This document shows positions 11,251-52,789 of a stretch of DNA of 64,000 bases, one piece after another. Every line of letters begins with the position of its first letter. The stretch's first letter is position 1. A model generated the notes under the pieces. The model was not told where the DNA came from, did not search any database, and saw nothing but the letters and a program-made list of their open reading frames with translations. A program made the position numbers and the translations under genes. Source of the stretch: an uncultured delta proteobacterium (GTDB lineage: Bacteria; Desulfobacterota; RBG-13-43-22); contig CAWJJC010000022.1 of assembly GCA_963843145.1 (NCBI GenBank), forward strand, positions 256,001 through 320,000, written 5' to 3'.

Positions 11251-11290
11251 AAAAAAAATGGGGCCCCCCGATTTTTCGGAGGGCCCCATC
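11251..11290 (-). terminator. Rho-independent terminator between convergent operons
   Basis: A-tract followed by the atggggccc...gggccccat hairpin just after the stop at 11304. Confidence 0.7.
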
Positions 11291-11303
11291 CGGAGGTTGT
11301 TTT

Positions 11304-13727
11304 TTAAAGAATATATTGAGCGACACCCTCCTTGTGCACCCGGCTGACCACCCCTTCTTTGACCATCTCCTGCAGTCCGACTATAATATCTTCTTTATTG
11401 GCTTTCAGGCTTTGGCTGAGCTCTTTCAGTTCAAAAAAGCGCTTATCCGAGCTGAGTAGATTGGCGATTCGGGACTTCACCCATTCTTCCTTCAGGATTC
11501 CCAGGAAGTCCTTGTCAAAGGCCATGGCATTGCGCTGGTTTCCAGGATAGACTTCCTCCCAGGGACGCCGCAGGGTGGCCCCCAGGACCCAGCGGACCCG
11601 GGGGTTGTTCACCGTAGCGTATATCCCCTGGATCTTTTCCTGAACATGAGGGCTTCGGTCGATAGGACCCAGCTCGTTGATTAATTTGATGAAGCTCTCC
11701 ACCACCACGATGTAATCCTCCGGTTTGTTCAGGTCCACGTGGGCCAGAGCGATGCGCCGACGGTCCTGTCCGGCGAACTCCAGCAGTTTTTTAAGGACGT
11801 TGACCCGGCTCCAGGTATGATCCAGTCCGAATGAGTGGTGGCAGTCATCCGGAGGGCAGCCGATCAAGATTAGGCCGTTGGCCCCTTCCACAAAAGCCCG
11901 GGCCAGCACCGAGGGGTCCAACTGACCGATGCAGCCCACCCGCAGTAGATAGACCCGGGGGTCGTAGGCCAGGCCTTTAAGGCCGGCATTATCGGCTGCG
12001 GCCAGACCTCCCCACATACAGCCGTAGGCCAGGACTTCGCCCTCAGACAGGGACCGGGCCAGGGCGGCCACCTGGGCCTCTCGCTGTTGGTTGGTGTTGT
12101 TTTGGAGGACCAAAGCATGGTGCGGGCAGGCGGCGGCGCAGGTCCCGCCGCCGGTACAGACCATGGGGTCCACCGCCCGGGGAATGCCGCCCCCCAGGCC
12201 TTCTACGGGCTCAATCCCGCCGCAATGGCAGATTTCCTTGCACAGTCCGCAGCCCGTGCACAGGGCCTGGTCAACCGAGCAAACCATCCGGGGGGCGTAG
12301 AGCTCGTTTTTTCGAGCCTTCTCCACCAGCTCCGACGTCTTGACCGCGGCCCGGCGGCCTTGGCGCAGGGCCTCATGGAGATCGCAGGGATAGCGGGCGC
12401 TGCCGGCCAGATACATCTCATCCCGCCCCACCTGTTCGGGTCGGACCTTTTCACCTTTCACTTCCAGAAACTTCCCCTTCTCGCACGCCAAACCCAGGAT
12501 ACCGGCGATCCGGGTGGCCTCCAGACCCACCGAACGCCGTGGGGAAAGGATTAATTTGTCCCAGGAAATTTCGTATTCCGTGTGGTCCTGGGGATCGCAA
12601 TAGGTCAGGTAACCGGCCTGCACCGTAGGACGGATGGCTCCGTCGTAAGGGATCCACTTGATCTTGTGCTGCCGGGCCAACCGTCGTTCTTCGGCGGAAA
12701 GGGGGAGCTGCATGAAGTGGTTGTAGATGAAACTGATCTCGAGGTCTTTTCGCTGGCTGATCATATACTGGGCAATGGACCAGGCGGTTCGGGACGACAG
12801 GTAGGCGTATTCCGGCGTTTTGGACTCGTAGTCGTTCAGCCAGAAGACGATTTTTCCGCTCGGGACCCCGTGGGTCCAGATCAACTCCTCGATTTCCGTG
12901 TGGCAGATCACCGATTTGCCGTCATGGCCGAAGTCGGACCCCTGGTTCAACATCTGGCCGTCCAGACAGGCGATAATGGCCCCTACTTCGAAGACCTTGG
13001 AGGGTTCCCCCTCTTGGGTCGAGAAGGTAACGGTGTAATGCCCGGTCCGACCCTTGACGCTTTTCAGCTCCCCGATGGTAATCCGCCGAACCAATGGGCT
13101 TTCATCCACCTCCTGCATGATTTTTTCCAGACGGTCGTAGTAATGCCGTTCCCCCGGATATTGTTCATGAAGCATGCGGATTTCATCTTCGTACTCATCG
13201 CTCTGGACCGCCAGGATGCAGTCGATGTTTTTCCGCAGCAGTTCCTGGGCGGCCGCGTAGGTGGCGATTCCTCCTCCGAGGATCATGACCGGGCCGACAA
13301 ACTCCACCTTTTCCGAGACCGTCGGCTCCAACACCGCCTGACCGGCCACCGCCGCCCCGATCAGTTTGGCTCCCTTGGCGGCCATTTCCTGGGGTGACAG
13401 CCGGTGCACAGCGGCCACATGGTCTTTTAGGTTGACCATGTCGATCTGACCTTCTTGGATATCCGTTCCGACGAAGGCTTGGTTGAATTTTTTTAAAAGG
13501 ATGCGGGGTTCGCAGCCGGCGATCACCAGTCGGTTCAACCCATGACGTTCGACGGATGCCTTGATTTGGTTCAATCCAGGAGTCGTGCAGGACATGGGCA
13601 GGATTTCAACCTGACTGATCAGGGGATTGTTCTGGAGCGCTTCCTGTAATTCCTTGAGGTCGACCCAGGGGTCGATCCGCCCGTCGCACTGGCAGAGAAA
13701 GACGCCTATTTTTTTATTGTCGTCCAT
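11304..13727 (-). CDS. HdrA-like/MvhD fusion (QmoB-like) Fe-S flavoprotein with C-terminal wHTH-like tail
   Basis: KIGVFLCQC start, ILGGG FAD motif, two ferredoxin motifs (CTGCGLC, CTGGGTCAAACP), MvhD motifs (YGCMW, RVGCIG, GCPPDDCH); RBS GGAGG before ATG 13727. Confidence 0.85.
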   Translation of the reverse strand: MDDNKKIGVFLCQCDGRIDPWVDLKELQEALQNNPLISQVEILPMSCTTPGLNQIKASVERHGLNRLVIAGCEPRILLKKFNQAFVGTDIQEGQIDMVNLKDHVAAVHRLSPQEMAAKGAKLIGAAVAGQAVLEPTVSEKVEFVGPVMILGGGIATYAAAQELLRKNIDCILAVQSDEYEDEIRMLHEQYPGERHYYDRLEKIMQEVDESPLVRRITIGELKSVKGRTGHYTVTFSTQEGEPSKVFEVGAIIACLDGQMLNQGSDFGHDGKSVICHTEIEELIWTHGVPSGKIVFWLNDYESKTPEYAYLSSRTAWSIAQYMISQRKDLEISFIYNHFMQLPLSAEERRLARQHKIKWIPYDGAIRPTVQAGYLTYCDPQDHTEYEISWDKLILSPRRSVGLEATRIAGILGLACEKGKFLEVKGEKVRPEQVGRDEMYLAGSARYPCDLHEALRQGRRAAVKTSELVEKARKNELYAPRMVCSVDQALCTGCGLCKEICHCGGIEPVEGLGGGIPRAVDPMVCTGGGTCAAACPHHALVLQNNTNQQREAQVAALARSLSEGEVLAYGCMWGGLAAADNAGLKGLAYDPRVYLLRVGCIGQLDPSVLARAFVEGANGLILIGCPPDDCHHSFGLDHTWSRVNVLKKLLEFAGQDRRRIALAHVDLNKPEDYIVVVESFIKLINELGPIDRSPHVQEKIQGIYATVNNPRVRWVLGATLRRPWEEVYPGNQRNAMAFDKDFLGILKEEWVKSRIANLLSSDKRFFELKELSQSLKANKEDIIVGLQEMVKEGVVSRVHKEGVAQYIL

Positions 13728-13747
13728 AATGGGTACCTCCTTATACC

Positions 13748-14386
13748 TTATACCTTTGGGGAAGAATGGGGGCTCTGGTGACCGCTGCCGCGGACACTGT
13801 CCAGACGGGCCCGCATCGCCCCGGTCGGGCAGACCGTCACGCAGGAACCGCAGGCCACGCACACCTCTGAGGGTTTTTCAAAAGGCGACCCAACTTTTTT
13901 GTGAACGCCCCGGCCGATGGTCGTGAGGGCGGAAACGCCCACCACCTCCCGGCAAACCCGGACACATAAACCACAGAGCAGGCATTGCTCTTCGGGATTA
14001 TCAATGCGGAAACGGGTTCCGGTTACCCCATACTCCGCCGCTAGGGCGCGAATTTCCTTGCTGGCCGGGCATTCGGCCAAAAGCATCTCCAGAATCCAAC
14101 GCCGCACATTTTTTACCCGGTCGCTGTCCGTTTGCACGGAAATGCCCTCTTGCGCCGGGAACATACAGGAAATCACCACCTTGGACCAGTTGCCTTTTTG
14201 GACCTCCACTACGCACAGGCGGCAGGCCCCGCTGGGCGAAACGGCTTCGTGATAGCAGAGGGTAGGTATGTGAATGCCGTACTGGCGGGCGGTCTCCAGG
14301 ACCGTCCAGCCTTCCTGGGCCTCTACCGGCTGGTCATTGATCGTAAAAGAAACGGATCTTGTTTTCGAATGGTTCTGGTTACTCAT
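13748..14386 (-). CDS. NuoG/HydA N-terminal-like Fe-S subunit (2Fe-2S plus 2x4Fe-4S; BamI/HoxU-like)
   Basis: IPTLC..GACRLC..SC; CLLCGLCVRVC; CVACGSCVTVCP. Confidence 0.88.
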   Translation of the reverse strand: MSNQNHSKTRSVSFTINDQPVEAQEGWTVLETARQYGIHIPTLCYHEAVSPSGACRLCVVEVQKGNWSKVVISCMFPAQEGISVQTDSDRVKNVRRWILEMLLAECPASKEIRALAAEYGVTGTRFRIDNPEEQCLLCGLCVRVCREVVGVSALTTIGRGVHKKVGSPFEKPSEVCVACGSCVTVCPTGAMRARLDSVRGSGHQSPHSSPKV

Positions 14387-14398
14387 GGGGTCACCTCT

Positions 14399-16309
14399 TT
14401 ATTCAATCTTTACCGCGTCAAACTTGCAGGAATCCAGGCACATGCCGCAGCGGATACAGGACGCTTCGTCGATCCGGTGGGGTTTTTTCTTCTCGCCGGA
14501 GATACAATTCTGGGGACAACTGCGGGCGCATAATCCGCAGCCGGTACAGGCCTCCGGGTCAATCCGGTAGGTTATCAAGGCCCTGCAAACGCCGGCCGGA
14601 CATTTGTGGTCCACGATGTGCGCCGCATACTCGTCGCGAAAATGCCGCAGCGTGGTCAGGACCGGATTGGGCGCCGTTCCTCCCAGCGCGCAAAGAGAAC
14701 CATCCTGAATGGCCTTGGCCAGGCTGTTCAGATCGTCTATATCCTCCATGGCCCCTTCTCCGCGTGAGAATCGATCGAGGAACTGGTACATCGATTTAAG
14801 CCCCAGCCGGCAGGGCAGGCATTTGCCGCAGGACTCGTCCATCAAAAAGGACAAGAAATAACGGGCTACGTCCACCACGCAGTCGCTGTCGTCCATAACG
14901 ATCATGCCGCCCGAACCCATCATGGAACCGGCCTTGGACAATGAATCAAAATCAACGGGTGTATCCCGAAGCGCATAGGGCAGACAGCCCCCCGAAGGCC
15001 CCCCGGTCTGTACGGCCTTGAAGTGGCCCCGTCCCGGAACACCTCCCCCGATGTTTTCCACCAGGTCATTGAGGGACATGCCCATGGGGATCTCCACCAG
15101 TCCGATGTTATTGATTTTGCCAACCAGCGAAAAAACTTTGGTGCCGGTGCTGGTGGGCACCCCGTAACCGGTGTACCAGTCGGGGCCTTTGCCGATGATC
15201 AAAGGGACATTACAGAAGGTTTCAATGTTGTTGATAATCGTCGGCTGGCCCCAAAGACCGGCTTCCGCCGGGAAAATATATTTGGGAGTGGCTTCGCCGG
15301 CCACCCCTTCAATGGAATGGATCAGGGCGGTTTCCTCCCCGCAGACGAAGGCACCGGCGCCTCGGACGATCAGCACCTCGAAATCAAACCCGCTGCCGAG
15401 GATGTCCTTCCCCAATAAACCCAGCTTTCGGGCCTGCTCCATGGCGATGGCCAGGTGTTTTCTGGCCAGGGGGTATTCCTCCCGCACGTACATATATCCC
15501 TGATGTGCCCCGATGGCGTAGGCGCCGAGAATGAGTCCCTCCAATACCGCGTGGGGATCCCCTTCCATCAGCGTTCGGTCCATGAAGGCCCCCGGATCCC
15601 CTTCGTCGCCGTTGGCGACGATGTAGACCGACCCGCCCTTTCTTTGAGCGGCACTGATGGCGGATTTCCATTTTATACCGGTGGGAAACCCGGCGCCCCC
15701 TCTTCCTCTCAGGCCGGATTTGACGATGGCCTCCACTACCTCACCGGGTTTCATGGTAGCCAGCGCCTTGGCCAGGGCCTCGTAGCCCCCGGCCGTAATC
15801 GTGTCGCGGATATCCGTGGGATCGATCTTGCCGATATTGTGCATGACGATCCGCGTTTGATTCTTGTAAAAAGGGATCTCTTCATGGTGGACAATGTGCT
15901 CGCCGGTCTTGGGGTCTTGATACAGGAGCCGATCCACCGGCTTTCCCTCCAGGAGGGTGGTTTGGACGATTTCCGGGCAGTCGGTTGGTTGCACCCGTTG
16001 GTAGAAAATGTCCGAGGGTTGTAAAATCACCAGGGGACCTCGTGAGCAAAAACCGTGACACCCGGTGGTTTTGATATCGGGAATAACCGAGATGTCCAAT
16101 CCGGCCTGGCTGATGGCCGTTCGAAGCGCACCGGCCACTTCCACGCTGCCGTTGGCCAGGCATCCCGTTCCATGGCAGACAATGATGTAGGGTTTTTGAG
16201 GATCCCTCGCCGTCAGGAGGGTTTCACGGTAGGTTTTTAACATATCCGGAGAAGTCAAACGGAGTTCCGTCGGTATCGGTTTGGGTTGTGCTTTACTTGC
16301 TTGAGCCAT
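14399..16309 (-). CDS. NuoF/HydB-like NADH-binding FMN Fe-S subunit
   Basis: GRGGAGFPTG, NGDEGDPGAFMDR, GAGAFVCGEET, ESCGKCLPCR; N-terminal thioredoxin-like 2Fe-2S and C-terminal 2x4Fe-4S. Confidence 0.93.
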   Translation of the reverse strand: MAQASKAQPKPIPTELRLTSPDMLKTYRETLLTARDPQKPYIIVCHGTGCLANGSVEVAGALRTAISQAGLDISVIPDIKTTGCHGFCSRGPLVILQPSDIFYQRVQPTDCPEIVQTTLLEGKPVDRLLYQDPKTGEHIVHHEEIPFYKNQTRIVMHNIGKIDPTDIRDTITAGGYEALAKALATMKPGEVVEAIVKSGLRGRGGAGFPTGIKWKSAISAAQRKGGSVYIVANGDEGDPGAFMDRTLMEGDPHAVLEGLILGAYAIGAHQGYMYVREEYPLARKHLAIAMEQARKLGLLGKDILGSGFDFEVLIVRGAGAFVCGEETALIHSIEGVAGEATPKYIFPAEAGLWGQPTIINNIETFCNVPLIIGKGPDWYTGYGVPTSTGTKVFSLVGKINNIGLVEIPMGMSLNDLVENIGGGVPGRGHFKAVQTGGPSGGCLPYALRDTPVDFDSLSKAGSMMGSGGMIVMDDSDCVVDVARYFLSFLMDESCGKCLPCRLGLKSMYQFLDRFSRGEGAMEDIDDLNSLAKAIQDGSLCALGGTAPNPVLTTLRHFRDEYAAHIVDHKCPAGVCRALITYRIDPEACTGCGLCARSCPQNCISGEKKKPHRIDEASCIRCGMCLDSCKFDAVKIE

Positions 16310-16319
16310 GGTTCCCTCT

Positions 16320-16784
16320 CTATTCAGCGGAGATTTTCTTGATTACGCTTTCCAGTTTTTTAGCGTTTACTTTAGCGTAATACTTTTCGTCGATGATGGC
16401 CACCGGGGCCAAAGCACAGGCGCCCAGGCAGTTTACCGTTTCCAGGGTAAACTTCAAATCCTTGGTGGTGGCGCCGGGTTGGACCTGCAGTTTCCGGGAA
16501 AGGTTTTCTACCAGTCGTAAGGAACCTTTTAGATGGCAGGCCGTTCCCTGGCAGACCCTGATTTCATGCTCTCCCTTGGGTTCGAGGCTGAATGATTTAT
16601 AAAAAGTGGCTACCGCATAGGCCTGGGTCAAAGGCACCCCGGCATGCTCGCAGACCAGGGCCATGGCTTCCGGTGAAATATAGTTATAAGCAGCCTGAAT
16701 TTCCTGAAGAAGAAATATCAGGGAGTCCGGCCTGCCCGGGTACCTTTCGATGATATCGTCTATCGAAACCTGTTCTCGGTTCAC
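16320..16784 (-). CDS. NuoE/HydC-like 2Fe-2S subunit
   Basis: VATFY, CQGTAC, CLGAC; GTG start with AAGGAGG RBS. Confidence 0.92.
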   Translation of the reverse strand: MNREQVSIDDIIERYPGRPDSLIFLLQEIQAAYNYISPEAMALVCEHAGVPLTQAYAVATFYKSFSLEPKGEHEIRVCQGTACHLKGSLRLVENLSRKLQVQPGATTKDLKFTLETVNCLGACALAPVAIIDEKYYAKVNAKKLESVIKKISAE

Positions 16785-16823: not shown

Positions 16824-16839
16824 AGCAAATGATATGCCA
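16824..16839 (-). promoter_or_regulatory. sigma54 -24/-12 promoter of the nuoE-like operon
   Basis: TGGCATATCATTTGCT has exact GG-N10-GC spacing; a sigma54 activator gene is adjacent. Confidence 0.85.
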
Positions 16840-16913: not shown

Positions 16914-17025
16914 TGTTTCATGATTATCGAGCCTGGAGGGGGGAATAATTATAAAAATAATTAATATTTTTAAGTAGTTATAAATTTATTCCATTACATG
17001 AAACAAATTGAAACATATTGAAACT
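16914..17025. promoter_or_regulatory. Candidate enhancer (UAS) sites
   Basis: TGTTTCA at 16914; TGAAACA/TGAAACA/TGAAACT at 16999, 17009, 17019 (10-bp period) in an AT-rich intergenic region. Confidence 0.5.
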
Positions 17026-17035: not shown

Positions 17036-18781
17036 TTATTCGATATTCAACCTTTTCATTTTCCGCCACAGGGAAGTCCGGCTGATACCTAATATCCGGG
17101 CGGCCTCCCGGCGGCGGCCACCGGCCTGCTTCAAGGCTTTTTCCAGGCGAACCGCTTCCCCTGCCGGATTTATCACTAGAGGCTCACGCCTTTTTTTCTC
17201 CGGCAGCCGTTCATTCATCAGCAGGTCCAGGCTGGGCAGGTTGCGTTGAAAAATCACCGGCCCCTTTACAAAAACATAGGCATATTCCAGTATTCTTTCC
17301 AACTCCCGGACGTTTCCCGGCCAGGGATAATTCATAAATTGCGCCATCACCTTGGGATCCAGACCGCGGACCTCCTTTTGATATTTCTGATTGAGGAGGC
17401 CCAGAAAATGTTCCACCAGCAAAGGGAGGTCTTCCATCCGTTCTCTTAAAGGAGGCAAGGTAATGGGAACGGTGCGGAGACGATAAAACAGGTCTTCCCG
17501 AAATCGGCCCTCAGCCAGGTCCTTGATCAGGTCCCGGTTGGTTGCGCTGATGATTCGGGCCTCCATGGGAATCAGCCGGGTGCCGCCCACACGTTCAAAG
17601 ACCCGTTGTTCCAGGACCCGCAGGAGCTTGACCTGCAGCTCCGGTTTCAGTTCGCCGATTTCGTCCAGGAAAAGGGTGCCGCTTCGGGCCAGTTCGAACC
17701 GCCCGACCTTGGAGCGGATGGCCCCGGTGAAAGCGGCTTTTTCATGACCAAAAAGTTCGGATTCCAACAAGGTCTCGGCCAGGGCCGAGCAATTGACGGC
17801 CACAAAGGGTCCCTCCCGATAGGCCGAATGGTGGTGAATGGCCCGGGCCACCAGCTCCTTGCCCGTACCGCTTTCCCCCTGGAGCAGCACGTTGGCCTGG
17901 CTGGCGGCCACATCGGGCAGGAGTTGAAAGAGCTGCTGCATGGCCGGGCTGCGGCCGATGATCTCGGAGAAACTATAGGCCCGGGAAAGGTGACCCGGCT
18001 GTTCAGCCAGATTGCCGATTAGATGGAAGGTTTCTACCGCGCCAATAACTTTTCCGTCCCGGTCTCGGACCACATTGGTGTTGACCAACATCGGCAGGCG
18101 GGCCCCGCTTTTATCCAACATCCGGACATCCTGGTCAAAGCGGGTAATCCCGCTTTCCAGGGTCAACCGTAGCGGGCAATCGCTCTGGCAGACATCCGAC
18201 CGGAAGATGTCCCAGCAAAAACGGCCCAAGACTTCCTCTCGCCGATAGCCGGTTATTTTTTCCGCCGTTTGATTGAACGAAGTGATCTGCCAGCGGGTAT
18301 TGATGGTAAATATACCTTCAGCCAGGTGTTCCAGCAGGCTTTCATACATGGGGGATGGCCTTCGGGGAAGGCCGGTTAACGGATCGACCCTATCTTGAGC
18401 TAGAAGGGGGGAAAATTCGGCGTCCCGAATACTGATGATCAGGCCGGTCACCAGTTGATTGATGCCGATCAAGGAGTTGACGGAAAAGACACTGTCAAAA
18501 ACAGACCCCCGAGAGTCCACGGTCCGGGTCTTCAGCCGTTGGGAACCTCCCCCGCGGCTCAACGCCTGGTCGATGGCGGCCATCACGACAGTCAGTCCGG
18601 GTCCCTCAAACAGCTCATCAAAGGAAATCCGCTCTCCGGGGACCAGGTCGGATCGCAACAACTGTTGGGCCCGGTCGTTGAAGCCCATAACCCGGTGATT
18701 GCGGTCCAGAACCAGGATGGCCTCGCCATTAAAATGGCCCGAGGAAACCAGGGTGTCTTCTTCCAGGGGTTTTTGGGTCAT
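17036..18781 (-). CDS. Double-PAS sigma54-dependent activator
   Basis: [29 protein letters not shown]-terminal Fis-type HTH; Cys-rich PAS ([14 protein letters not shown]). Confidence 0.93.
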
Positions 18782-18818: not shown

Positions 18819-19073
18819 TTATCCTAAAATACGGGTGATGTCTTCATCTTCCAGGAAAGAGGATATATTCCAGCACAGGGCCCTCAATTCCTTGTCGAGG
18901 ATGCCGGGAGACAGCAGTTTCCCTCCCTCGAAACCCCGGGACCTGACCAAGGCAACAATTAGATGAAGCTTTTCCCGATATACTTCTTCATTCCGGGTGA
19001 AAGCCCGGTGATAGGCGGCCACCAGGGTATTGACCCGATTGATAGAACAGCGTTTACAAGTTCGATCAGGCAT
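18819..19073 (-). CDS. Small hypothetical protein
   Basis: 84-aa ORF with CxxC, co-oriented with the activator; no family recognised. Confidence 0.5.
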   Translation of the reverse strand: MPDRTCKRCSINRVNTLVAAYHRAFTRNEEVYREKLHLIVALVRSRGFEGGKLLSPGILDKELRALCWNISSFLEDEDITRILG

Positions 19074-19624: not shown

Positions 19625-19978
19625 TCACTCGGTAGCTGAACCGGCCTCCATATCCTGAAGGCGCTTTTTGATCCTATCCAACTCAGACTGCAAGGCTTCC
19701 GCCCGGCCTTTCAGCGACCCTTTTTCCAATTCCGGATCCGACCCTTCGAACGAAGCCCCCCCACCGGCGAAACGCCGCCAGGCCGGCAGACCCGCACCGA
19801 AGAACCAACGGCATAACCCTCGACCGCCGCTCCTCCCGCCGGGACCCAGGCTGTTGCTGAAAAAGCTACCCCAGCCCCCCTGATTAAATGCGGGCCTCCC
19901 GGAGCCGGCGCAATACCCGCCTCCCCGGCCGGTCATCGGCCCCATTCCCATGGGCCCTGTCCTGTCTCCTCTGGGCAT
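19625..19978 (-). CDS. DUF5320-like Gly/Arg-rich protein
   Basis: MPRGDRTGPMGMGPMTGRGGGYC start, C-terminal coiled coil. Confidence 0.85.
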   Translation of the reverse strand: MPRGDRTGPMGMGPMTGRGGGYCAGSGRPAFNQGGWGSFFSNSLGPGGRSGGRGLCRWFFGAGLPAWRRFAGGGASFEGSDPELEKGSLKGRAEALQSELDRIKKRLQDMEAGSATE

Positions 19979-20037
19979 GATCGAACCTCCTTTCCGGTGG
20001 TTGAATTTCTGTTTGAGTATAGATTAGAAAACATTGA

Positions 20038-20283
20038 TTACCAGTTGAACCAACGCCGACGGCTTCCCAGGCCTGAAAGACTACCCCGGCCTCGACCCAA
20101 GCCCAGACCAAACCAACCCAGAAAACCGCTACCGGCTTTCCGTTGAAAAGAACCCGGTTGTCCAAAATCGCCGTTTAATTTCCGGCCCAGAAGGCCCTTC
20201 GAAGAACCGCTAGTGCAGGGTCCGGCGCCCCGGCCGGTCATGGAACCTTGCCCCAACGGTCCCGTTTTATCACCACGAGGCAT
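20038..20283 (-). CDS. DUF5320-like Gly/Arg-rich protein
   Basis: MPRGDKTGPLGQGSMTGRGAGPC from ATG 20283. Confidence 0.75.
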   Translation of the reverse strand: MPRGDKTGPLGQGSMTGRGAGPCTSGSSKGLLGRKLNGDFGQPGSFQRKAGSGFLGWFGLGLGRGRGSLSGLGSRRRWFNW

Positions 20284-20288
20284 ACAAA

Positions 20289-20705
20289 TCACCCCCTTTC
20301 CATTTTTTTCCATTTCCGCATCTCCGGGTTCCGGTTGATCAGCCGGCGGCAGCGGGTTGGCCGGCCCCTGGGAACCCAGCCGGGCATTCGAAAGCAGGGT
20401 CGATGCAGCGATCCACACAAAAAGGCCCGGAGGACCACCTCCAGGTCGCCGCAAATAAACCCGATGACCCGGACCCCGGCCGCCTCCAGGGCTGTCTCCA
20501 GAGGGGTCGAAACCGCTCCGCAGATCAGGGTTTGCGTCCCTAAGCCGGTTACCTCTTTGGCCCGGTGGAAGGGATCATGGTGGTTCAGGGTTATTTTTTC
20601 CCGCTGGACTTCCTGCCCTCCCGTGCACTGAATCAGGTAGACGTTATCCGATACGTCAAACACCGGAGCTATCCTCCCCTGCCAATGAGCCACCGCGACT
20701 TTCAT
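20289..20705 (-). CDS. NifB/NifX-family (FeMo-co-binding/ORP-like) protein
   Basis: MKVAVAHWQGRIAPVFD...LICGAVS...FRMPG. Confidence 0.82.
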   Translation of the reverse strand: MKVAVAHWQGRIAPVFDVSDNVYLIQCTGGQEVQREKITLNHHDPFHRAKEVTGLGTQTLICGAVSTPLETALEAAGVRVIGFICGDLEVVLRAFLCGSLHRPCFRMPGWVPRGRPTRCRRLINRNPEMRKWKKMERG

Positions 20706-20718
20706 AAATCCTTTCAAA

Positions 20719-20734
20719 TGCAATCCGGGGGCCA
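20719..20734 (-). promoter_or_regulatory. sigma54 -24/-12 promoter candidate
   Basis: TGGCCCCCGGATTGCA with correct spacing; divergent from a sigma54 activator; very close to the start codon. Confidence 0.6.
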
Positions 20735-20884
20735 AGGCCCGGTGATTAAATAGTTGACTAAAACCGGTAGGTTATGAAATATTTCCCTTGTAGCATTGAC
20801 AATAATCATTCAAAATACTATTATATTTAAGATAAAAGATTTTATTTTGCACGATTAAAAGTGGTAGTAGGGATAGGCTTGGGG

Positions 20885-22246
20885 ATGAAACTGGAAGAGG
20901 AAATAGGTCTTCGAGACGTTATCCTGGACTCCATCAACGAAGGGGTGTTCACGGTGGGTCCCGACTGGCGAATTACAGCCTTTAACCGGGCCGCGGAACG
21001 GATAACCGGCGTGTCCCGGAGGGAGGCCCTCGGCCGTTCCTGTTCCGATGTGTTTCATGCCGACATCTGTGAAAAGGATTGTGCCCTCAAGCGAACCTTC
21101 ACCACCGGCCAGCCGATTGTGAATGCCACCGCTGGTATCATCAACAACCGGGGACAACGGGTGCCGATCCGTATCGGCACCGCCATCTTAGAAAACAGCG
21201 TCGGAGAGGTCATCGGGGGCGTGGAAACCTTTCAGGACCTAAGCCAAGTCGAGGAGCTGCAAAAAGAATTGCTTAACCGGCATTCGTTTGAGGACATCAT
21301 CGGACGAAGCCCGGCCATGATGCAGTTGTTCGAGGTGGTCCCCCAGATTGCCGAGAGCAACAGTACGGTGCTGATTGAGGGCCCCAGCGGCACCGGGAAA
21401 GAACTATTCGCCAAGGCTATTCACAATCGGTCTCCCCGCCGGAAAAAGCGTTTCCTGGCCTTGAACTGCGCGGCCCTGCCGGACACCCTGCTGGAAAGCG
21501 AACTGTTTGGACACAAGGCCGGGGCCTTTACCGACGCCAAACGGGAAAAGGTGGGCCGCTTTGTCCTGGCCAACGGGGGGACCCTGTTCCTGGATGAAAT
21601 CGGCGATATCTCGCCGGCCATGCAGGTACGCCTGCTGCGGGTGCTCCAGGAACGCCAGGTCGAGCCTTTAGGGGGTCTCGAGCCTGTACCGGTGGATGTC
21701 CGGGTCGTGGCCGCCACCAATCAGGATCTGGCCGGGCTCATTCAGGCCGGCCGGTTTCGCGAGGATCTCTATTACCGCCTGCATGTCATACATCTGAAGC
21801 TGCCGCCCCTGAAGGAACGGCGGGAAGACATCCCGCTTCTGGTGGATCATCTGGTGGGCAAGTTCAACCGTCTGCAGGGGAAGCAGATTGCCGGCGTTTC
21901 CCAGGAGGCCATGGCCCGGCTGCTGGAGTATGATTATCCGGGCAATATCCGGGAGCTGGAAAACATTATCGAGCAGGCTTTTGTGCTCTGCCGCGGCGGG
22001 TTGATCGAGATGGCCCATCTGCCTCCTGAAATGCGTCCGCCCGCTGATTCCGCCGGGGAAACCTTCGGCCCGATGAGCCTGGAGGCCATGGAAAAGCGGC
22101 TCATCCTGGAAACCCTTTGGCGTTGTTCGGGAAACCGGAAACAGGCCTCCCGGGAATTAGGCATCGATGTGAGTTCCCTCTACCGAAAAATAAAGGCCTT
22201 GCAGTTGGAGGTGCCGGAAATGGACGGCCGCAGCCGTAAAAAGTGA
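20885..22246 (+). CDS. PAS sigma54-dependent activator (OrpR-like)
   Basis: Cys-rich PAS (CSDVFHADICEKDC), GPSGTGKE, GAFTDA, HTH; divergent from NifX/DUF5320 genes. Confidence 0.92.
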   Translation: MKLEEEIGLRDVILDSINEGVFTVGPDWRITAFNRAAERITGVSRREALGRSCSDVFHADICEKDCALKRTFTTGQPIVNATAGIINNRGQRVPIRIGTAILENSVGEVIGGVETFQDLSQVEELQKELLNRHSFEDIIGRSPAMMQLFEVVPQIAESNSTVLIEGPSGTGKELFAKAIHNRSPRRKKRFLALNCAALPDTLLESELFGHKAGAFTDAKREKVGRFVLANGGTLFLDEIGDISPAMQVRLLRVLQERQVEPLGGLEPVPVDVRVVAATNQDLAGLIQAGRFREDLYYRLHVIHLKLPPLKERREDIPLLVDHLVGKFNRLQGKQIAGVSQEAMARLLEYDYPGNIRELENIIEQAFVLCRGGLIEMAHLPPEMRPPADSAGETFGPMSLEAMEKRLILETLWRCSGNRKQASRELGIDVSSLYRKIKALQLEVPEMDGRSRKK

Positions 22247-33515: not shown

Positions 33516-34274
33516 TCACTTCGTAACCGTCCTCAGTTTTGCCAGAGCCTGGTGCGCAGCATTGATTAAAGGATGCACCGTGGGCGCCGAAGTGAGCAGG
33601 GGATGCGTGGCGATCTGCATCATATCCAGATCGCGGACATTCAGCTTGGTCTGGATCCCGATGGCTATGGTATTGATCAATTCCCCGACAGAAGATCCTC
33701 CCGACAACTGACCGCCAAGCAGCGTCCCCCCTTTATCGGCGAAGATCAGCTTGACCTTCAGCGGGGATGATCCGGGAAGTACTCCCGGGTGGCGATCCGG
33801 AGCAACCGCCTGACCCGTAACCATCCTAAATTCCTCTTGTTCACAGGCCCGGCAAGTCATCCCGGCGCTGGCCAGGGAAATATCCCCGATCTTGGTTGAA
33901 AAGGCAGAGATGGTCCCCTGTATCTGCCGGAGAACGCGGATCCCATATATATTGGTTCCGGCGATTCTCGCTTCAGCCGTCGCTGTTGAGGCCAGCCAAA
34001 CAGGGGCCTCTTTTCTGGTAAAAAAATCACGTTTCAAAGCGCAATCACCCACAGCGAAAACGTTTTTCGTTCTGGTTCTCATATAAGAATCCACCCATAT
34101 AGAGCCGCTTTCGGTGCAAAACAATTTGGCCTTTTTGGCCAAATCAATGTTTGGTTTGCCGCCGATGCCCAGGATGACGAGATCGGCGGCTAGGGTCTCT
34201 CCGTTATCCAGAGTGACTGATTCCACCCTGGTATTTCCATCAATGGAAACCAGATCTTCGGCAAAATCACTCAT
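33516..34274 (-). pseudogene. N-terminally deleted NADH oxidase/CoA-disulfide reductase-family gene
   Basis: Has ADLVILGIG, VFAVGDC and the dimerisation domain (LLGGQ, HP) but no N-terminal GxGxxG FAD/NAD motifs. Confidence 0.7.
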
Positions 34275-34304: not shown

Positions 34305-35633
34305 TCATAAATGATCCGCGTTTTGCCTTCCTATCTCGGACTCCTCTGCCGGGTGCGGTGCGGTAAGCGGTTCGGACTGGTTATTCCTGAATTTGTCGAT
34401 GACTTCGCGCACCGTTGCACCCTCTTCGGCCCGGTAAATGTCCACAAAATGGTCTTTCAACATGTAAAATGAAATTTCTCCAATTTTAGGGGTGAAAACA
34501 ATATCCAGTCGGTGCTTGAGGACGGCCTTGATGACTTTGACTCCCACATGGATCTGTTCTTTTTCCTTGATAAATTCATTGTAATAAAAGTCCTCGATCT
34601 CCAAGACGTCCCGGTCCACTTCGAGAATAATGAAATAAGGGGCCCTGCCGAAATGCCCGTAGACCCTTGAATCCAATCCGTTAATATCCTCTACGGGGAT
34701 TATGATCGACCGGTCCGTTTGTTTAGACGGTTCTATGTGCACGAAAACGGATTCAATCCCATCATAGGTTTTTATCACCCTTTCTTCCATTTGGTCTGCC
34801 AGATCATGAGCCTTATACACGGTCAAGGAAGGGCTGGTGGTGACGATACATTCCACCATTTTGAATGGCCCGAACTGCCTTATTTTTACCTCCCCCACCC
34901 CCTTAACCCCCTTCATTTTGAATAGTTGGTCTTCTATTCCCTGCTGCATTTGTGGATCGAGATTGGCGTCCATCAATATCAGAATAGGGGTCCAGACATT
35001 TTTTAGGCCCAGGCGGATAATAAGCAGGGCGATTACCATGATGACCGCGCCCTCGGCATAGGGGACCCTGGCGTAGGCCAACAACAGACCCATCAGAACA
35101 ATTAAGGAGATGCCTATATCCAGAAAAGATTCAGAGGCGTTGGCTAACAGGGAGTTGGACTTGATCAGCTCACCCGTTTCTTTCTCCTTTTTGGCGATAA
35201 AATAGGCGGCGATCAGGGAAAGCAAACTTACAGCAACCGGCCAAATTGGAAATTGTTGCAGAGAAGGTAGAATGAAGAACTTCTTAAATCCTTCGTTCAG
35301 GTTCTCTAGTCCGGCCCAAGTAATCAGGATTCCAATTACCAGGGTTACAAATGTCTCGGCCCGGTATAATCCATAGGGGAATCTTTCACTTTTTTTTCGG
35401 GAGGCCAGCCAGAGCCCTAACCAGGAGGCAAAGATGGCCACCACGTCAACGCCGCTGTGGAAGGCGTCGGCGATGAGAATTCTGGAATCTGACCGGTGGC
35501 CTATGACGAACTTTCCGGCCGCCAAAAGTACCGTCAAACAAGTTGCGATTAAGGCGACCTTCCGACCCTGTTTAAGCCTATCGGTAGGGTGGTTTCCGGC
35601 ATCCATTTTTTCGGCCGAAACCAGGCTATTCAC
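34305..35633 (-). CDS. Cation diffusion facilitator fused to a NifB/NifX-like domain
   Basis: ADAFHS, FPYG, AHDLAD, VHIEP; C-terminal GHFGRAPYF. Confidence 0.9.
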   Translation of the reverse strand: MNSLVSAEKMDAGNHPTDRLKQGRKVALIATCLTVLLAAGKFVIGHRSDSRILIADAFHSGVDVVAIFASWLGLWLASRKKSERFPYGLYRAETFVTLVIGILITWAGLENLNEGFKKFFILPSLQQFPIWPVAVSLLSLIAAYFIAKKEKETGELIKSNSLLANASESFLDIGISLIVLMGLLLAYARVPYAEGAVIMVIALLIIRLGLKNVWTPILILMDANLDPQMQQGIEDQLFKMKGVKGVGEVKIRQFGPFKMVECIVTTSPSLTVYKAHDLADQMEERVIKTYDGIESVFVHIEPSKQTDRSIIIPVEDINGLDSRVYGHFGRAPYFIILEVDRDVLEIEDFYYNEFIKEKEQIHVGVKVIKAVLKHRLDIVFTPKIGEISFYMLKDHFVDIYRAEEGATVREVIDKFRNNQSEPLTAPHPAEESEIGRQNADHL

Positions 35634-35850
35634 CCTTTAAAAATTGGCGGGTCATAATTGATCCGCACTGAGGGCAATGGCTTTGGAAACAAGGGATACC
35701 TGGCTTATGGGGCACCACAAGACGGCATTGGGGACAGATACAATTCGTAGAAGGCCCTCCCGGCCCGATGGCTCCAGGGCCTCTTCCGCTACCGAACGCT
35801 CTGCCTTTACTTCCCCGTTGTCGCCCGCCGCCCCCGAACATAAAGGGCAT
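35626..35850 (-). CDS. Small Gly-rich Cys-motif (zinc-ribbon-like) protein
   Basis: CICPQC..PH..G.PC....CPQCG..M.R. Confidence 0.75.
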   Translation of the reverse strand: MPFMFGGGGRQRGSKGRAFGSGRGPGAIGPGGPSTNCICPQCRLVVPHKPGIPCFQSHCPQCGSIMTRQFLKGE

Positions 35851-35871
35851 GATGACCTCCTGTCCGCACGC

Positions 35872-36639
35872 TCATTTAAAGGGGCGCTTTTTGGCTACGG
35901 AAAGATTAATTTTTTTTACATTTTTTTTAAAAAACTGCATTCCACCGCCTTCGCTGACGATCTGTAGAATGCCTTTGTTGTCCAGAACCTCGATACCGGA
36001 AAGAACCGTTACCGGAGTGTCCTGAAAGACCTCCGGCAAAAAAGGGGTGGAGGCCCCTAACAGGACGACCTCACGACAGGATCGGGAGGCTTCCAAGAGG
36101 GCATCCAAGGTATTATTAATCAAAGTGGTTGAAGTGATCAGGGCAACTTGGCATCGAGGAAGAAGCTTTAAGGCCACCTCTTCAGGAAGTATTTCTCCTG
36201 GTTGTTCCACCTTTTCAAAAATATGCAGCCGGCTGACCTTTTTTTTTAGTTCAAGAACCAGAGGACCAAAATATCCCACCATTCCCACCGTATCTTCAGA
36301 TGTTAGGTTGAGGAATTCCAGGATATCCCCTTCCTGAGCCCCACAGGGTTGATAGTTGGACAGGGCATTGACCGTTGCCAATCCCACCGCCGCCTCTATT
36401 TTTTCATTTGAATCAAGACCGGACAAAAGGTCCCCTACTCTCCTGCCGGCCAGGGGGCGCAGGCCAGGAAATACGGAACATCCTCCGGGTAAATCCTGCC
36501 GAAAAGTAAAGGCCACACCGGTCCGGCCGGATTCGAGCTGCACAGCAGTGTATCCCAAACCGATACGCACATCTTTAACCCGATCTTCCCTGCCGCTTTC
36601 TTGCAGAGCTTGTATGATCTTTTTCTGGATGATGCCCAT
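35872..36639 (-). CDS. DUF364 Rossmann-like putative metal-chelation protein
   Basis: IGLGYTAV, GLATVNAL, MVGYFGP, ITSTTLINNT, GAST. Confidence 0.85.
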   Translation of the reverse strand: MGIIQKKIIQALQESGREDRVKDVRIGLGYTAVQLESGRTGVAFTFRQDLPGGCSVFPGLRPLAGRRVGDLLSGLDSNEKIEAAVGLATVNALSNYQPCGAQEGDILEFLNLTSEDTVGMVGYFGPLVLELKKKVSRLHIFEKVEQPGEILPEEVALKLLPRCQVALITSTTLINNTLDALLEASRSCREVVLLGASTPFLPEVFQDTPVTVLSGIEVLDNKGILQIVSEGGGMQFFKKNVKKINLSVAKKRPFK

Positions 36640-36712
36640 GAGGTAAAAAACGCTCGCCCCTTTATAAGCCCTTCACCCGGGCTTTCAAATTTCTACTTAT
36701 TCGGCCAACAGA

Positions 36713-37417
36713 TCAGGGCTTCCAGACCTCCCAGACCTTGCCGACCAACGCCGGTCCGGGTTTAAGGGTTACTTGTCCCGGCTGCCAGCCCGAAGGGGTT
36801 ACTTCACCGGTGGAACGCACATGCTGGAAGGCCTTGATTTGCCGCATCAACTCGTCGGGACTGCGCCCCACCTCAGGGGTAAGGACCTCCATGGCGCGGA
36901 TGATAAAATCCGGATCAATAATGAAACGACCTCGAATATCCACCCCGGCCGCTTCGTCATACACCCCGTAAATCGTGCCGATTTTCCCCCCGGCGTCTGA
37001 GAGCATCGGGAAGGGGACCCCGCCGTTTACCATCTTGGACAACTCCTGCTCCTGCCAAATTTTGTGGACAAAACGACTATCGGTACTCATGGCCAAAACT
37101 TCTACTTCCCGCGCCTTAAATTCCTGATAACGGGCGGCAACTGCCGCCAGTTCGGTCGGTCAGACAAAAGTGAAGTCTCCGGGGTAGAAGCAAAGAACAA
37201 TCCATTGACCCTTATAGTCCGAGAGTTTAATCGGCTTAAATCCCTGGCCTTCGACGAAGGCATTCGCCTCAAAATCCACAGCTTCCGACCCAACGCGAGC
37301 GATCATCTTTTTTCCCTCCGGTGATGGTGCACTTCCAACTGCCGCCACGGATGATTCCACTGCGGGGACAATGGGCCCCCGCGCAGGTTTGACACAACCT
37401 TCGGTGAGTTCCGGCAT
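36713..37417 (-). CDS. prxU: Selenocysteine-containing peroxiredoxin
   Basis: [16 protein letters not shown]: UGA at the peroxidatic Cys position (37162-37160); reading continues in frame through STDS..H..W and GR to the stop at 36713; hairpin at 37133-37148. Confidence 0.93.
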
Positions 37418-37533
37418 AGCACCTCCTAATCTGAGAATTTATCTCTAACAGGTTAGCAAGAGAATCTGCAAATTCGAAACACGAAACAAGCACGAAAGTC
37501 CAAAGTCCAAATATTTTTGGTTAGTCTTCTCTG

Positions 37534-37992
37534 CTAACCGGCACTCCCCTTACCCTGAGGAGCGGACTTAAAATAATTTTCAATGGCCTGCCGCAACGTG
37601 TCTCGGGCCAGCACCGCACAATGTTTTTCTTCCGAAGGGATGGCCGAAAGGCAGCGGAGTATCTGGTGTTCGTCAATATCCCAGGCCTCCTCCAGGCTTT
37701 TTCCCTTGGCCAAAGAGGCGGCGATGGAGGCACAGGTCCGGCTGAAAGCGCAGCCATCGACTTGAAACCGAACTTCGTCGATGTTTTCCTTCCCGATGCG
37801 CAAGTACATCATCATGGTATCCCCGCAAGGTCCGGTGATTTTACCGATCCCATTGGCCTCGGGTAACTGGCCTTCATTGTAAGGACCCAGCCAATTTTGT
37901 AGATAGGGTTGTCCCCCTCCGATTCCGACCGGACTATTCGGGATCGTCTCGCGGTTCACCGATCGGTTTTTGTTATCCAGTTCCATGTCCAT
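37534..37992 (-). CDS. NifU/IscU-like Fe-S scaffold
   Basis: GPCGD, DGCAFS, HCA.LA motifs. Confidence 0.88.
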   Translation of the reverse strand: MDMELDNKNRSVNRETIPNSPVGIGGGQPYLQNWLGPYNEGQLPEANGIGKITGPCGDTMMMYLRIGKENIDEVRFQVDGCAFSRTCASIAASLAKGKSLEEAWDIDEHQILRCLSAIPSEEKHCAVLARDTLRQAIENYFKSAPQGKGSAG

Positions 37993-38879
37993 CCTTTGGA
38001 ATTTGGTTCAGGAATTCCAGCGTCCGCTCCCAGAGGACCCCTATTTCTCGGCCCAATCCATCAGGCGCATATTCAGGGATGGTCTGGGCCGCCACCATGG
38101 CCTGGGTGACGACGGGATCATAGGGGAGTCTTTCCCAGAAGCCCCAGGTTGTTTTTTCGAGCATAATCCTCGATTTTCCGGGAAACGTCGGGCTGAAGGT
38201 CGAATTTATTAATCAGGACCATCCCCGGGATCTTAAAATGTCGGAGCAATTCCACCACCCGGTTTAAGTCATGGAGTCCCGAAAGGGTGGGTTCAGTGAC
38301 CAGCAGCACCGCGTCGGTTCCGGTAACCGACGAAATGACCGGACACCCGATACCGGGAGGTCCGTCGATGAGGATTAGTGGTCGCCCCTGCTCCTCGGCC
38401 AGATCCCGGGCCTGCTGTCGGACAAGGGACACCAGCAGGCCTGAATTTTCCTGGGCCACCCCCAACTGGGCATGCACCAGAGGACCAAAACGGGTATCGG
38501 AGACAAACCACTGGCCGCACTCGACCAGGGGAAAATCGATCGCCTGGACCGGGCAGAAATGTACGCAGACCCCGCAGCCCTCGCAGGAAAAAGGGTCTAC
38601 CCGGTAGTCTTCACTAATAGCCTGAAAGTTGCAAACCTCCCGACACAAACCACAGGCGGTGCAGCTTTCCGCCCGGATGACGGCCTTCCGCCCTCCCAAA
38701 AAACGTTCGGTTTTTCGTTTTTGCGGATCGAGCAGGAGGTGCAGGTCCGGGGCATCCACATCGCAATCAACCAGGACCTTATCCGGAATGATGGCCGCCA
38801 AGGCCCCTACCAGGCTGGTTTTTCCCGTTCCGCCCTTGCCACTCAAGACCGCGATTTCTTTAATTTTAGTGGAGGACAT
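37973..38879 (-). pseudogene. MinD-superfamily ATPase with ferredoxin insert, frameshifted near its 3' end
   Basis: SGKGGTGKT, DCDVDAP, 2x4Fe-4S, DGPPGIGCP; C-terminus RLPYDPVVTQAM lies in another frame after an extra A near 38131. Confidence 0.8.
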
Positions 38880-39732: not shown

Positions 39733-39748
39733 GAGTTTTTAATTTTAA

Positions 39749-49177: not shown

Positions 49178-49206
49178 ATTTTTCCACTCTCCTTCGTTCG
49201 GGCGCC

Positions 49207-52688: not shown

Positions 52689-52789
52689 AGTACCCTTTAT
52701 TTTGTTTTGTCCCGGACACCATGGGCCGGGTGAAAAGTTAACTGGGAAGCCAGGAGGCCATCCGGCCCCCCCGGTTCAACGCCCACCCT

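Follow-up and report, generated by a model that had tools for sequence, protein, structure and literature searches.

Which reaction is served by an operon that encodes Nuo-like NADH- and ferredoxin-linked proteins together with an HdrA-MvhD fusion protein, and no catalytic subunit? Such an operon is found on the minus strand, at positions 11304–16784, of a 64,000-nucleotide stretch of DNA from an uncultured delta proteobacterium of the Desulfobacterota (assembly GCA_963843145.1, contig CAWJJC010000022.1, positions 256,001–320,000); this whole stretch is called the window in the following. An earlier note, made from the sequence, regarded the operon as an orphan diaphorase module coupled to a degenerate HdrA, and as a bifurcating or confurcating plug-in for a partner encoded elsewhere. 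We infer instead that the four gene products form a stand-alone soluble Fe-S flavoprotein complex of the Bfu type, which would serve a diffusible or transiently bound partner; in our estimate, this reading has about an even chance of being right. The operon and its boundaries are as follows.

16320..16784, minus strand: NuoE/HydC/BamG-like subunit (BfuC), 154 amino acids (aa), four Cys for one [2Fe-2S] cluster (Pfam PF01257 2Fe-2S_thioredx, E 9e-51)
14399..16309, minus strand: NuoF/HydB/BamH-like subunit (BfuB), 636 aa (Pfam)
13748..14386, minus strand: short NuoG-N/BamI/WorA-like subunit (BfuA), 212 aa (Pfam)
11304..13727, minus strand: HdrA-MvhD fusion gene, 807 aa; the open frame reaches 13862
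16824..16839, minus strand: sigma54 -24/-12 element TGGCAT-N5-TTGCT, 40 nt ahead of the GTG start of the first gene
11256..11291, minus strand: intrinsic terminator, 16-pair stem (10 GC) followed by a T-run, a hairpin directly 3' of the operon

The four-gene unit and its Nuo-like core

The gaps between the four genes, as called in the window, measure 10, 12 and 20 nt. The open reading frame (ORF) of the fusion gene, 11304–13862, overlaps the stop of the preceding gene; the likely start is the Met at 13727 (MDDNKKIGVFLCQC), which follows the stop of the third gene, and the start was corrected from 13862 to this position. Searches with Pfam and NCBIfam revealed no H-cluster, NiFe, molybdopterin or CCG (HdrB/D) domain in the operon, and a CCG domain is absent from its flanks as well. 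The earlier statements that hydrogenase, pterin and HdrB/D genes are missing, and that the unit lies between a sigma54 promoter and a terminator, were thus borne out. Taken alone, the -24/-12 pattern is no more frequent than expected by chance (15 matches in the window, 23.5 expected); the promoter call draws its weight from the position of the element, from the adjacent sigma54 activator and from recurrence in orthologous upstream regions, where the element was seen in 27 of 32 (loose pattern, no shuffle control).

The three Nuo-like proteins are predicted to constitute a Bfu (HydBC-type) core. Three features of this family were found: the domain set of BfuB, a BfuC encoded alongside, and the Type 2 cluster pattern of BfuA. 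In BfuB, Pfam and NCBIfam detected an N-terminal thioredoxin-like [2Fe-2S] domain (23.8 bits, just short of the cut-off of 24.8), the FMN- and NADH-binding Complex1_51K domain, the NADH_4Fe-4S helical bundle and a C-terminal 2x[4Fe-4S] domain with two Fer4 matches. The protein could be aligned over its full length, including the N-terminal [2Fe-2S] and C-terminal 2x[4Fe-4S] domains, with the solved bifurcating subunits 9mqx_B (E 2e-223), NiFe-HydB 7t2r_B and HydB 8a6t_B, 7q4v_B and 7p5h_B; NfnB 9n5u_B and 8oh5_B could likewise be aligned end to end, and subunits of complex I matched the central part only. For the 154-aa protein the best solved match was 9mqx_C (E 2e-40), followed by HydC 8a6t_C, and for the 212-aa protein 9mqx_A (E 2e-42). 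The structure 9MQX represents WorABCSL of Acetomicrobium mobile, in which, according to the available text of its report, a bifurcating plug sits on a nanowire of tungsten enzymes (PMC12318220).

The 212-aa protein consists of Fer2_4 and a 2x[4Fe-4S] domain, i.e., the N-terminus of NuoG (Pfam). Its Cys residues 44, 55, 58, 74, 135, 138, 141, 145, 176, 179, 182 and 186 are invariant in 14 sequences, the BamI paralogue of the same genome included, and suffice for one [2Fe-2S] and two [4Fe-4S] clusters. The motif for a His-ligated cluster is absent, with LLAECPAS at the position of the His/Cys motif of HydA; the BamI paralogue likewise does not have it. This is the pattern given to the BfuA of clade 45 / Type 2 enzymes by Schut et al. 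(PMC9304861, as far as the text was available), where the A3 and A5 clusters are missing. It is also compatible with the 5 [4Fe-4S] and 3 [2Fe-2S] clusters measured for BamGHI, according to the accessible part of a preprint on the class II benzoyl-CoA reductase of Geobacter metallireducens (bioRxiv 10.64898/2026.04.10.717634). The genome contains three further NuoF paralogues, in Bam-like, MetF-linked and Nuo-linked clusters, and the NuoF of the operon was separate from all of them in a quick IQ-TREE analysis.

The HdrA-MvhD fusion protein

The 807-aa protein can be divided into five parts.

13323..13727, minus strand: residues 1–135, N-terminal domain of HdrA, invariant Cys 12, 14, 47 and 72, one [4Fe-4S] cluster expected (alignment to 5odc_A 4–133)
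12318..13322, minus strand: residues 136–470, derived thioredoxin reductase-like (TrxR-like) domain (alignments, Foldseek)
12063..12317, minus strand: residues 471–555, C-terminal ferredoxin domain (alignments)
11658..12062, minus strand: residues 556–690, MvhD domain, Cys 570, 599, 624 and 629 for one [2Fe-2S] cluster (Pfam FlpD)
11307..11657, minus strand: tail of ~117 residues with conserved linker, long helix and winged helix (alignment with the BamF paralogue, AlphaFold2)

Pfam detected the FlpD/MvhD domain at residues 565–687 (E 7e-30) as well as Fer4 motifs; the models for HdrA2/HdrA matched far under their cut-offs (NCBIfam NF040770, 294 versus 1100 bits). When solved structures were searched with phmmer, residues 5–234 and 328–543 corresponded to residues 4–233 and 420–636 of HdrA 5odc_A, and residues 562–690 to MvhD 5odc_D; for the inserted ferredoxin domain of 5odc_A (residues ~234–419), phmmer found no counterpart. 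Residues 3–560 could be aligned by BLASTP with residues 452–1011 of the 1013-aa HdrA encoded at 49647–52688 of the window (25% identity, E 8e-35), with KIGVFLCQC opposite RIGVFICDC, and WLNDYESKTPEY..SSRTA opposite QCVGSRCPDNPNCSRLCCQSA; this agrees with the match to the second half of that HdrA and the replaced Cys motif that had been pointed out before. An AlphaFold2 model (mean predicted local distance difference test score 87, predicted template modelling (TM) score 0.80) gave HdrA chains as top Foldseek matches (E ~7e-29), followed by the HdrA-like 6tjr_A (target-normalised TM 0.76) and by thioredoxin reductases; in this model the HdrA fold is kept in the TrxR-like domain. Language-model features placed the domain with FAD oxidoreductase clusters (0.93), which we regard as a lead only.

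Motif columns were read from alignments of 40 and 71 family sequences. Lost family-wide are the Cys motif of the TrxR-like domain (CxGSR..CS..CC, aligned with QCVGSR..CSRLCC), which is replaced by W-x-N-D-x-E...S-x-R-x-A-W, the CxxC of the 'DCxxC' region, the inserted ferredoxin domain, and the GG motif, at whose position the fusion contains DEIRML. The GxGxxG motif reads GGGIAT in the query; its third Gly is replaced by Thr, Ser or Ala in the majority of members and persists in few, above all in the whole of clade C (see below). The acidic residue closing the second strand of the TrxR-like domain is changed. None of the 120 homologues listed had a Pfam FAD or Pyr_redox family, nor had the query; of 10 HdrA-MvhD proteins that are more distant, such families were present in all but two, which are short. 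In the MvhD domain, the motif is C-M-W-G in the query and C-x-W-G/S family-wide; the last position is Cys in MvhD and selenocysteine (Sec) in the BamF paralogue of the same genome (C-H-W-U).

Other elements are retained, namely the cluster-binding Cys of the HdrA N-domain, the C-terminal 2x[4Fe-4S] domain, and the four Cys of the MvhD cluster, which are invariant. The ferredoxin domain has the motif CxxCxxCxxxC plus an extra invariant C502; its second motif, C-x-G-[GE]-G-x-C-xxx-C, contains three Cys only, and 7 of 8 canonical Cys are thus kept. The TrxR-like domain has in addition acquired invariant residues specific for the family (W296, N298, D256), near-invariant H268 and C275, which are absent from clade C, and an invariant Cys448 within 'PCDL', the counterpart of 'PK(D/T)I' in canonical HdrA. 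Columns conserved to at least 90% make up 28–34% of this domain, compared with 23% of the N-domain. The designation of the HdrA as "degenerate" understates the strong constraint on the domain. Cys448 was also considered as a substitute for the Lys which contacts N5 of the bifurcating FAD; the own BamE paralogue aligns a Lys (C-terminal unit) and a Val (N-terminal unit) there, these positions also do not fit Lys280 and Gln768 of the preprint, and the idea was dropped.

For class II benzoyl-CoA reductase, the preprint (bioRxiv 10.64898/2026.04.10.717634) describes, in its accessible part, that the route to BamD runs via the cluster of the TrxR domain, and the route to the low-potential output via the inserted ferredoxin domain; a gating role is discussed for a Cys-Cys disulfide and for the Sec. 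By their motifs, HdrA-type bifurcation and both exits of HdrA look absent from the fusion, and the input path, consisting of ferredoxin domain, MvhD and tail, looks preserved. Since the motifs tied to bifurcation are gone, a second bifurcation site in the HdrA part appears unlikely.

The MvhD domain and the winged helix-turn-helix-like tail, which had been noticed in the sequence, are also present in the AlphaFold2 model, where helices 767–774 and 778–791 are followed by a beta hairpin at 795–806. The BamF paralogue of the same genome, when TGA is read as Sec, has the same layout and is collinear through the linker (BLASTP); both proteins end in a winged helix. According to the accessible text of the preprint, BamF exceeds other MvhD proteins in length by more than 100 residues, its winged helix touches BamI, and electrons pass from BamI I3 via the C-terminal ferredoxin clusters E1/E2 of BamE and the [2Fe-2S] cluster F1 of BamF to the bifurcating FAD. 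Because of the likeness to BamF, taken together with this contact and this route, the tail is best read as a putative device for docking the fusion on the NuoG-N-like subunit.

Conservation and regulation of the operon

A word-indexed search yielded more than 120 full-length homologues of the fusion protein (~810 aa, 55–85% identity), and in an exhaustive search the bit scores dropped from 976–605 for family representatives to at most 275 for the next full-length proteins. Relatives with E ≤ 1e-100 occurred in 33 of 401 sampled genomes of the phylum and were concentrated in few families. About 100 related loci, which belong to several families of the phylum, contain the genes intact and at full length; the loci examined comprised 15 from the genome collection, 20 stretches cut from genomes and 65 from metagenomes. 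The operon is widespread in cultured and uncultured Desulfobacterota. In a rooted FastTree phylogeny of 76 family sequences and 4 outgroups, the family splits into clade C, with 36–40% identity to the query, and a large clade.

The genes upstream of the fusion gene were counted in 102 operon units, which were not de-duplicated. In the scorable units a NuoG-N-like gene was found in 82/83, NuoF in 65/66, NuoE in 59/62 and the activator in 47/50. The exceptions were one locus without Nuo genes (L107), two in which NuoE was not found within the set distance (L022, L097) and three in which the activator was not found (L081, L116, L128). Locus L107, from a metagenome, is the only scorable one without Nuo-like genes upstream of the fusion, and contains an IscU-like gene and an oppositely oriented activator instead. 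The operon is a conserved unit and not a decayed remnant. It had been considered earlier that homologous operons might always include a catalytic subunit, which was simply lost here; among the operon genes of the loci examined there was none, optional fifth genes apart.

Two features upstream of the operon concern its regulation.

17036..18781, minus strand: sigma54 enhancer-binding protein, 581 aa, with PAS, AAA+ and Fis-type helix-turn-helix domains (Pfam, NCBIfam)
16914..17025, no strand assigned: probable activator binding sites TGTTTCA/TGAAACA, ~10 nt apart in tandem (enriched 7-mer)

The PAS domain of the activator bears a triad of the OrpR type, C189-x-D-x6-C198-x3-C202, with D191 as the acidic residue. 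This triad was present in 41 of 43 PAS matches across the loci, including every operon-adjacent activator; the two proteins without it were unrelated ones from the window. In OrpR of Desulfovibrio vulgaris, the residues C52, C61 and C65 bind a redox-sensing [4Fe-4S] cluster, with an acidic residue at 54; the regulator is active at low redox potential and its regulon comprises neighbouring operons only, according to the available text (PMC8359166). Both activators have in common the sigma54 type, the Cys-x8-Cys-x3-Cys triad with an acidic residue two positions after the first Cys, and targets limited to neighbouring genes; the activator of the operon differs from OrpR by a longer N-terminus and by serving a redox operon instead of orp genes. 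By analogy, the operon would probably be made at low redox potential only.

The heptamer TGTTTCA/TGAAACA was the most enriched one in de-duplicated orthologous upstream regions (22 of 29). The 5.3-Mb genome contains 621 such sites, and clusters of at least three within 160 nt occur twice, at this operon and in a CRISPR array. The latter, on contig C27:142600–143400 with a repeat beginning GTTTCAATCCACGCCCC, is a chance match, and the scan of the 5.3-Mb genome for TGTTTCA clusters gave no co-regulated partner promoter. As the repeat cluster is found at no other promoter of the genome, the activator looks dedicated to the operon. A Fe-S redox-sensing activator, a defined repeat motif and a single target would together make a clean regulatory case, to judge from the sequences.

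Possible functions, known systems and neighbouring loci

In the stand-alone complex which we prefer, the NuoE/NuoF-like FMN core would exchange electrons with NAD(H) and ferredoxin and would be the sole bifurcating or confurcating site. The NuoG-N-like subunit, of the BamI/WorA type, would carry mid-potential electrons from the core to the fusion protein, which would represent one HdrA unit plus a BamF-type MvhD adaptor and would dock with its winged-helix tail on the NuoG-N-like subunit. By way of the C-terminal ferredoxin clusters and the [2Fe-2S] cluster of MvhD, electrons would arrive at the derived TrxR-like domain and at the [4Fe-4S] cluster of the N-domain. There they would be given to, or drawn from, a third substrate which is not encoded in the operon of this clade, most likely a redox partner that diffuses or binds transiently. 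Since the elements with which HdrA bifurcates at a flavin and passes electrons on to HdrBC or ferredoxin are lost, the HdrA part would be a wire or substrate arm and no second bifurcator.

Several points weigh against this reading. The characterised BfuABC modules with a short BfuA are, in the accounts available, all stably plugged into catalytic subunits (WorSL, BamBCDEF), and a free-standing one would be unusual. HdrA-like genes of 900–1080 aa, possible Hdr partners, were found within the fetched flanks of 8 loci. The conservation hot spots 151–165, 181–195 and 436–465 are the positions of classical FAD motifs; because of these, and since clade C retains GxGxxG, a flavin may be present in the TrxR-like domain, which would then do more than electron wiring. 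The trees of NuoF and of the fusion protein are incongruent, which suggests that modules were exchanged between operons, and for this reason the NuoF tree was not used for the history of the operon. Docking of the tail is argued by analogy, and the match of the lost Cys motifs to particular clusters of HdrA and BamE is a putative one.

A tentative alternative, possible and rather improbable in our opinion, would be that the four proteins are the input arm of a larger stable enzyme, whose output subunits, catalytic or of the Hdr type, would be encoded at another place. The stripped HdrA unit might, for instance, have a canonical HdrA(BC) as its partner, in a similar way as TrxR1 is the partner of the non-bifurcating TrxR2 half in BamE. 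Besides the plugged state of the short-BfuA systems and the HdrA-like genes near 8 loci, this would be consistent with at least a dozen HdrA paralogues in the genome and with the nature of BamE, which the accessible text of the preprint describes as a dimer of fused HdrA units, one of them structural and non-bifurcating; in alignments with such large proteins, the query matches their C-terminal HdrA unit. It would also fit with the genes which follow the operon in some clades. One of these belongs to the FrhB/FdhB family (Fer4 + FrhB_N + FrhB_C, ~368 aa). It was scored if located on the same strand, with its start less than 600 nt past the stop and at least 45% identity to the first example, in loci with at least 700 nt of downstream DNA; it was present in 13 of 17 scorable clade-C loci and in 3 of 46 large-clade loci, these three being from one sub-clade, and hairpins between it and the fusion gene are without T-run. 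In 6 loci, the operon is immediately followed by an IscU-like (NifU_N) gene in the same orientation, and 14 of 100 loci have such a gene in their flanks. The filling of the slot after the fusion gene by different genes suggests that the partners differ.

However, the sub-clade of the query has neither an FrhB-like nor an IscU-like fifth gene, and no adjacent partner gene is conserved there. The FrhB-like orthologue is missing from the own genome, where one distant FrhB-family gene was found (27% identity, apparently split over two frames), and from five other large-clade operon genomes, four of which have FrhB paralogues with 29–30% identity only and one of which gave no match. The activator repeats, as described, are clustered at no other promoter, and the motif for the cluster that leads to HdrC/BamD in canonical HdrA is absent from the fusion. 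In view of the promoter scan and the missing orthologue, a partner encoded elsewhere, as proposed earlier, is not supported, or at best left open.

Unlikely, in our view, is also that the TrxR-like domain is itself catalytic, i.e., that it binds a flavin or nucleotide and reduces a small molecule or a protein thiol, for instance via Cys448, the operon then coding for a complete enzyme. The domain has retained its fold and is as conserved as the cluster-binding domains, with the residues named above and hot spots where FAD motifs would be expected; moreover, the conserved input wire of ferredoxin domain and MvhD must terminate at a redox-active site, and the regulation is dedicated to the operon. 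On the other hand, the FAD signature is missing throughout the homologues listed, GxGxxG has not kept its third Gly, the GG motif is altered and so is the acidic residue of the second strand, C275 and H268 do not occur in clade C, and a substrate cannot be named. Still somewhat less probable appears a domain representing a new kind of third-substrate site, where NADH and reduced ferredoxin would be pooled under strongly reducing conditions for an undescribed reduction; the OrpR-type activator would then sense these conditions. A supply of electrons to metallocluster-assembling proteins of the IscU/Orp type, whose genes repeatedly adjoin the operon, or chemistry at Cys448 would be possible roles.

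A serial arrangement of two bifurcation modules like that of class II benzoyl-CoA reductase, where a bifurcating FAD of the fusion would split electrons between two acceptors, could be envisaged from the parallel architecture of BamGHI-BamF-BamE and from the HdrA fold; both exits are missing with the cluster motif of the TrxR domain and the inserted ferredoxin domain, as are the CxxC, the Cys/Sec next to the [2Fe-2S] cluster and any HdrBC/D or BamBC partner in the operon, and we consider this very improbable. A non-functional remnant of a Bam- or Hdr-type cluster, suggested by the missing catalytic gene and the lost HdrA motifs, can practically be dismissed, given full-length genes in ~100 loci with invariant Cys ligands, an own activator, promoter and terminator, and a confident model.

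The stand-alone complex has a close counterpart in BamGHI-BamF-BamE of Geobacter metallireducens. In the accessible text of the preprint, this system comprises a HydBC-type NuoE/NuoF pair, a short NuoG-N subunit with three clusters, an MvhD adaptor with linker and winged helix, and an HdrA-type unit fed via its C-terminal ferredoxin domain. The likeness to the BamGHI plus BamE/F arm, as recognised earlier, was upheld by the BamI/WorA cofactor pattern, the HydB-type full-length alignment, the BamF-type tail and the paralogous modules of the same genome. In contrast to class II benzoyl-CoA reductase, BamB, BamC and BamD are missing and the adaptor is fused to the HdrA unit; in contrast to the fused dimer BamE, there is one HdrA unit, without TrxR cluster motif, CxxC and inserted ferredoxin domain; and Gly is present where BamF has Sec next to the [2Fe-2S] cluster. 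WorABC (9MQX) provides the closest solved relatives of all three Nuo-like subunits and is likewise a BfuABC plug with a short BfuA, but it feeds the WorSL nanowire, whereas the next subunit of the operon is the HdrA/MvhD fusion and no tungsten enzyme is encoded. With the HydABC/Bfu family (8A6T, 7P5H, 7T2R; PMC9304861, available text) the operon shares the domains and cofactors of BfuB and BfuC, and a BfuA without His-ligated cluster, as in clade 45 / Type 2; unlike in HydABC, the BfuA has no catalytic domain. In the same text Bam-Bfu is the sole named type with an HdrA-MvhD link, and its F420-Bfu is an archaeal BfuA fusion.

HdrA of MvhADG-HdrABC (5ODC) and HdrA2 of Methanosarcina have the N-terminal domain, TrxR-like fold and C-terminal ferredoxin domain in common with the fusion, and HdrA2 also the fused MvhD domain; the fusion differs by the loss of the inserted ferredoxin domain and cluster motif, the missing HdrBC and the extra winged-helix tail. 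QmoB of sulfate reducers is HdrA-like with a C-terminal MvhD-like domain and is described as an FAD-binding flavoprotein in the available text (PMC3333476), whereas the fusion is without detectable FAD motif. The resemblance to QmoB claimed earlier concerns the HdrA plus MvhD architecture only; neither qmoA nor qmoC (HdrC/HdrE fusion), nor aprAB, was found in the flanks of the operon. The genome encodes DsrA. In two proteins of a representative library (P0146 and P0147; 1255 and 1737 aa), HdrA, ferredoxin, MvhD and a tail-like stretch are followed by a GltD/NfnB-like NAD(P)H module; here the pyridine-nucleotide module comes after the tail rather than docking on it.

In the literature searched, to which the supplementary figures and tables of PMC9304861 and the 2021 review of HdrA modules by Appel et al. 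did not belong, the four-gene unit was not described, and neither Hdr nor Desulfarculus is listed in the supplementary text file of PMC9304861. The nearest precedent is a 2013 genome paper, which in its available part lists nuoEFG-mvhD and hdrA clusters without analysis. The parts are therefore known, and their combination, i.e., a Bfu core, a fused and stripped BamF/HdrA-like arm, a dedicated activator of the OrpR type and no output module, was not described in the texts searched. Recent structures have made Bfu cores known as plugs for varied output modules, one of which is the second bifurcator, of the HdrA type, of benzoyl-CoA reductase. The operon is a natural minimal coupling of Bfu and HdrA, with core, BamI-like wire and BamF/HdrA-like adaptor and no known output; it could be a small system in which to study docking between Bfu and Hdr modules, and it points to an NADH/ferredoxin-linked reaction in anaerobic sediments and groundwater.

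The same genome contains related modules at other places. A complete Bam-like cluster (L032, contig C12:160001–180000) encodes an AOR C-terminus, a CCG protein (383 aa), a 947-aa HdrA, a Sec-containing BamF-like protein with winged-helix tail, NuoE, NuoF (642 aa), a BamI-like protein (204 aa) and two ATPases of the BcrAD/BadFG type; the NuoF and BamI proteins of this cluster and of the operon are 55% and 38% identical, respectively. Another cluster (L033, contig C20:400001–420000) codes for a CCG protein, NuoF (617 aa), a 1094-aa NuoG-N-HdrA fusion, a Sec-MvhD, methylenetetrahydrofolate reductase (MTHFR) and a 769-aa HdrA-MvhD fusion, and could possibly represent an NADH-linked methylene-tetrahydrofolate reductase complex. 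In the window itself, a second Hdr locus at 47589–55676 is a MetFV-HdrA-MvhD-type cluster: it consists of MTHFR (52790–53662), the 1013-aa double HdrA (49647–52688), MvhD (49207–49647), an MTHFR C-terminal-domain protein (48509–49210) and a further MTHFR (47589–48512), with a PAS-containing sigma54 activator adjoining (54225–55676).

Genes for metal and Fe-S proteins are located at 34305–41002 on the minus strand. They encode a cation-efflux and Nitro_FeMo-Co fusion, a DUF364/DUF4213 protein, NifU_N, two CbiA/ParA + Fer4 proteins and a fusion of NUBPL-type ParA with Nitro_FeMo-Co, and resemble components of the Orp complex. An ORF of 252 aa (33516–34274) matches only the C-terminal third of Pyr_redox_2 and the dimerisation domain; this may be a disulfide-reductase gene that is truncated or whose start was missed.

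Upstream of the activator gene of the operon, one small conserved ORF should be mentioned.

18819..19073, minus strand: ORF of 84 aa, 37 nt upstream of the activator gene (clustering, tblastn)

It occurs in 19 loci by clustering and in 22 of 100 related loci plus the window by tblastn, is present in a single copy in the genome, and has no Pfam match at E ≤ 0.1; its motifs are C-[KR]-R-C-S..RVN..L, with a CxxC, and LCWNISS. Further upstream, a second OrpR-like activator (20861–22246, plus strand) with the same Cys triad is divergent to a gene with a Nitro_FeMo-Co domain (~20289–20705, minus strand) and two DUF5320-like genes (19625–19978 and ~20038–20270, minus strand). With a sigma54-like element at 20719–20734 on the minus strand, the region 19625–22246 resembles an orp-type locus.

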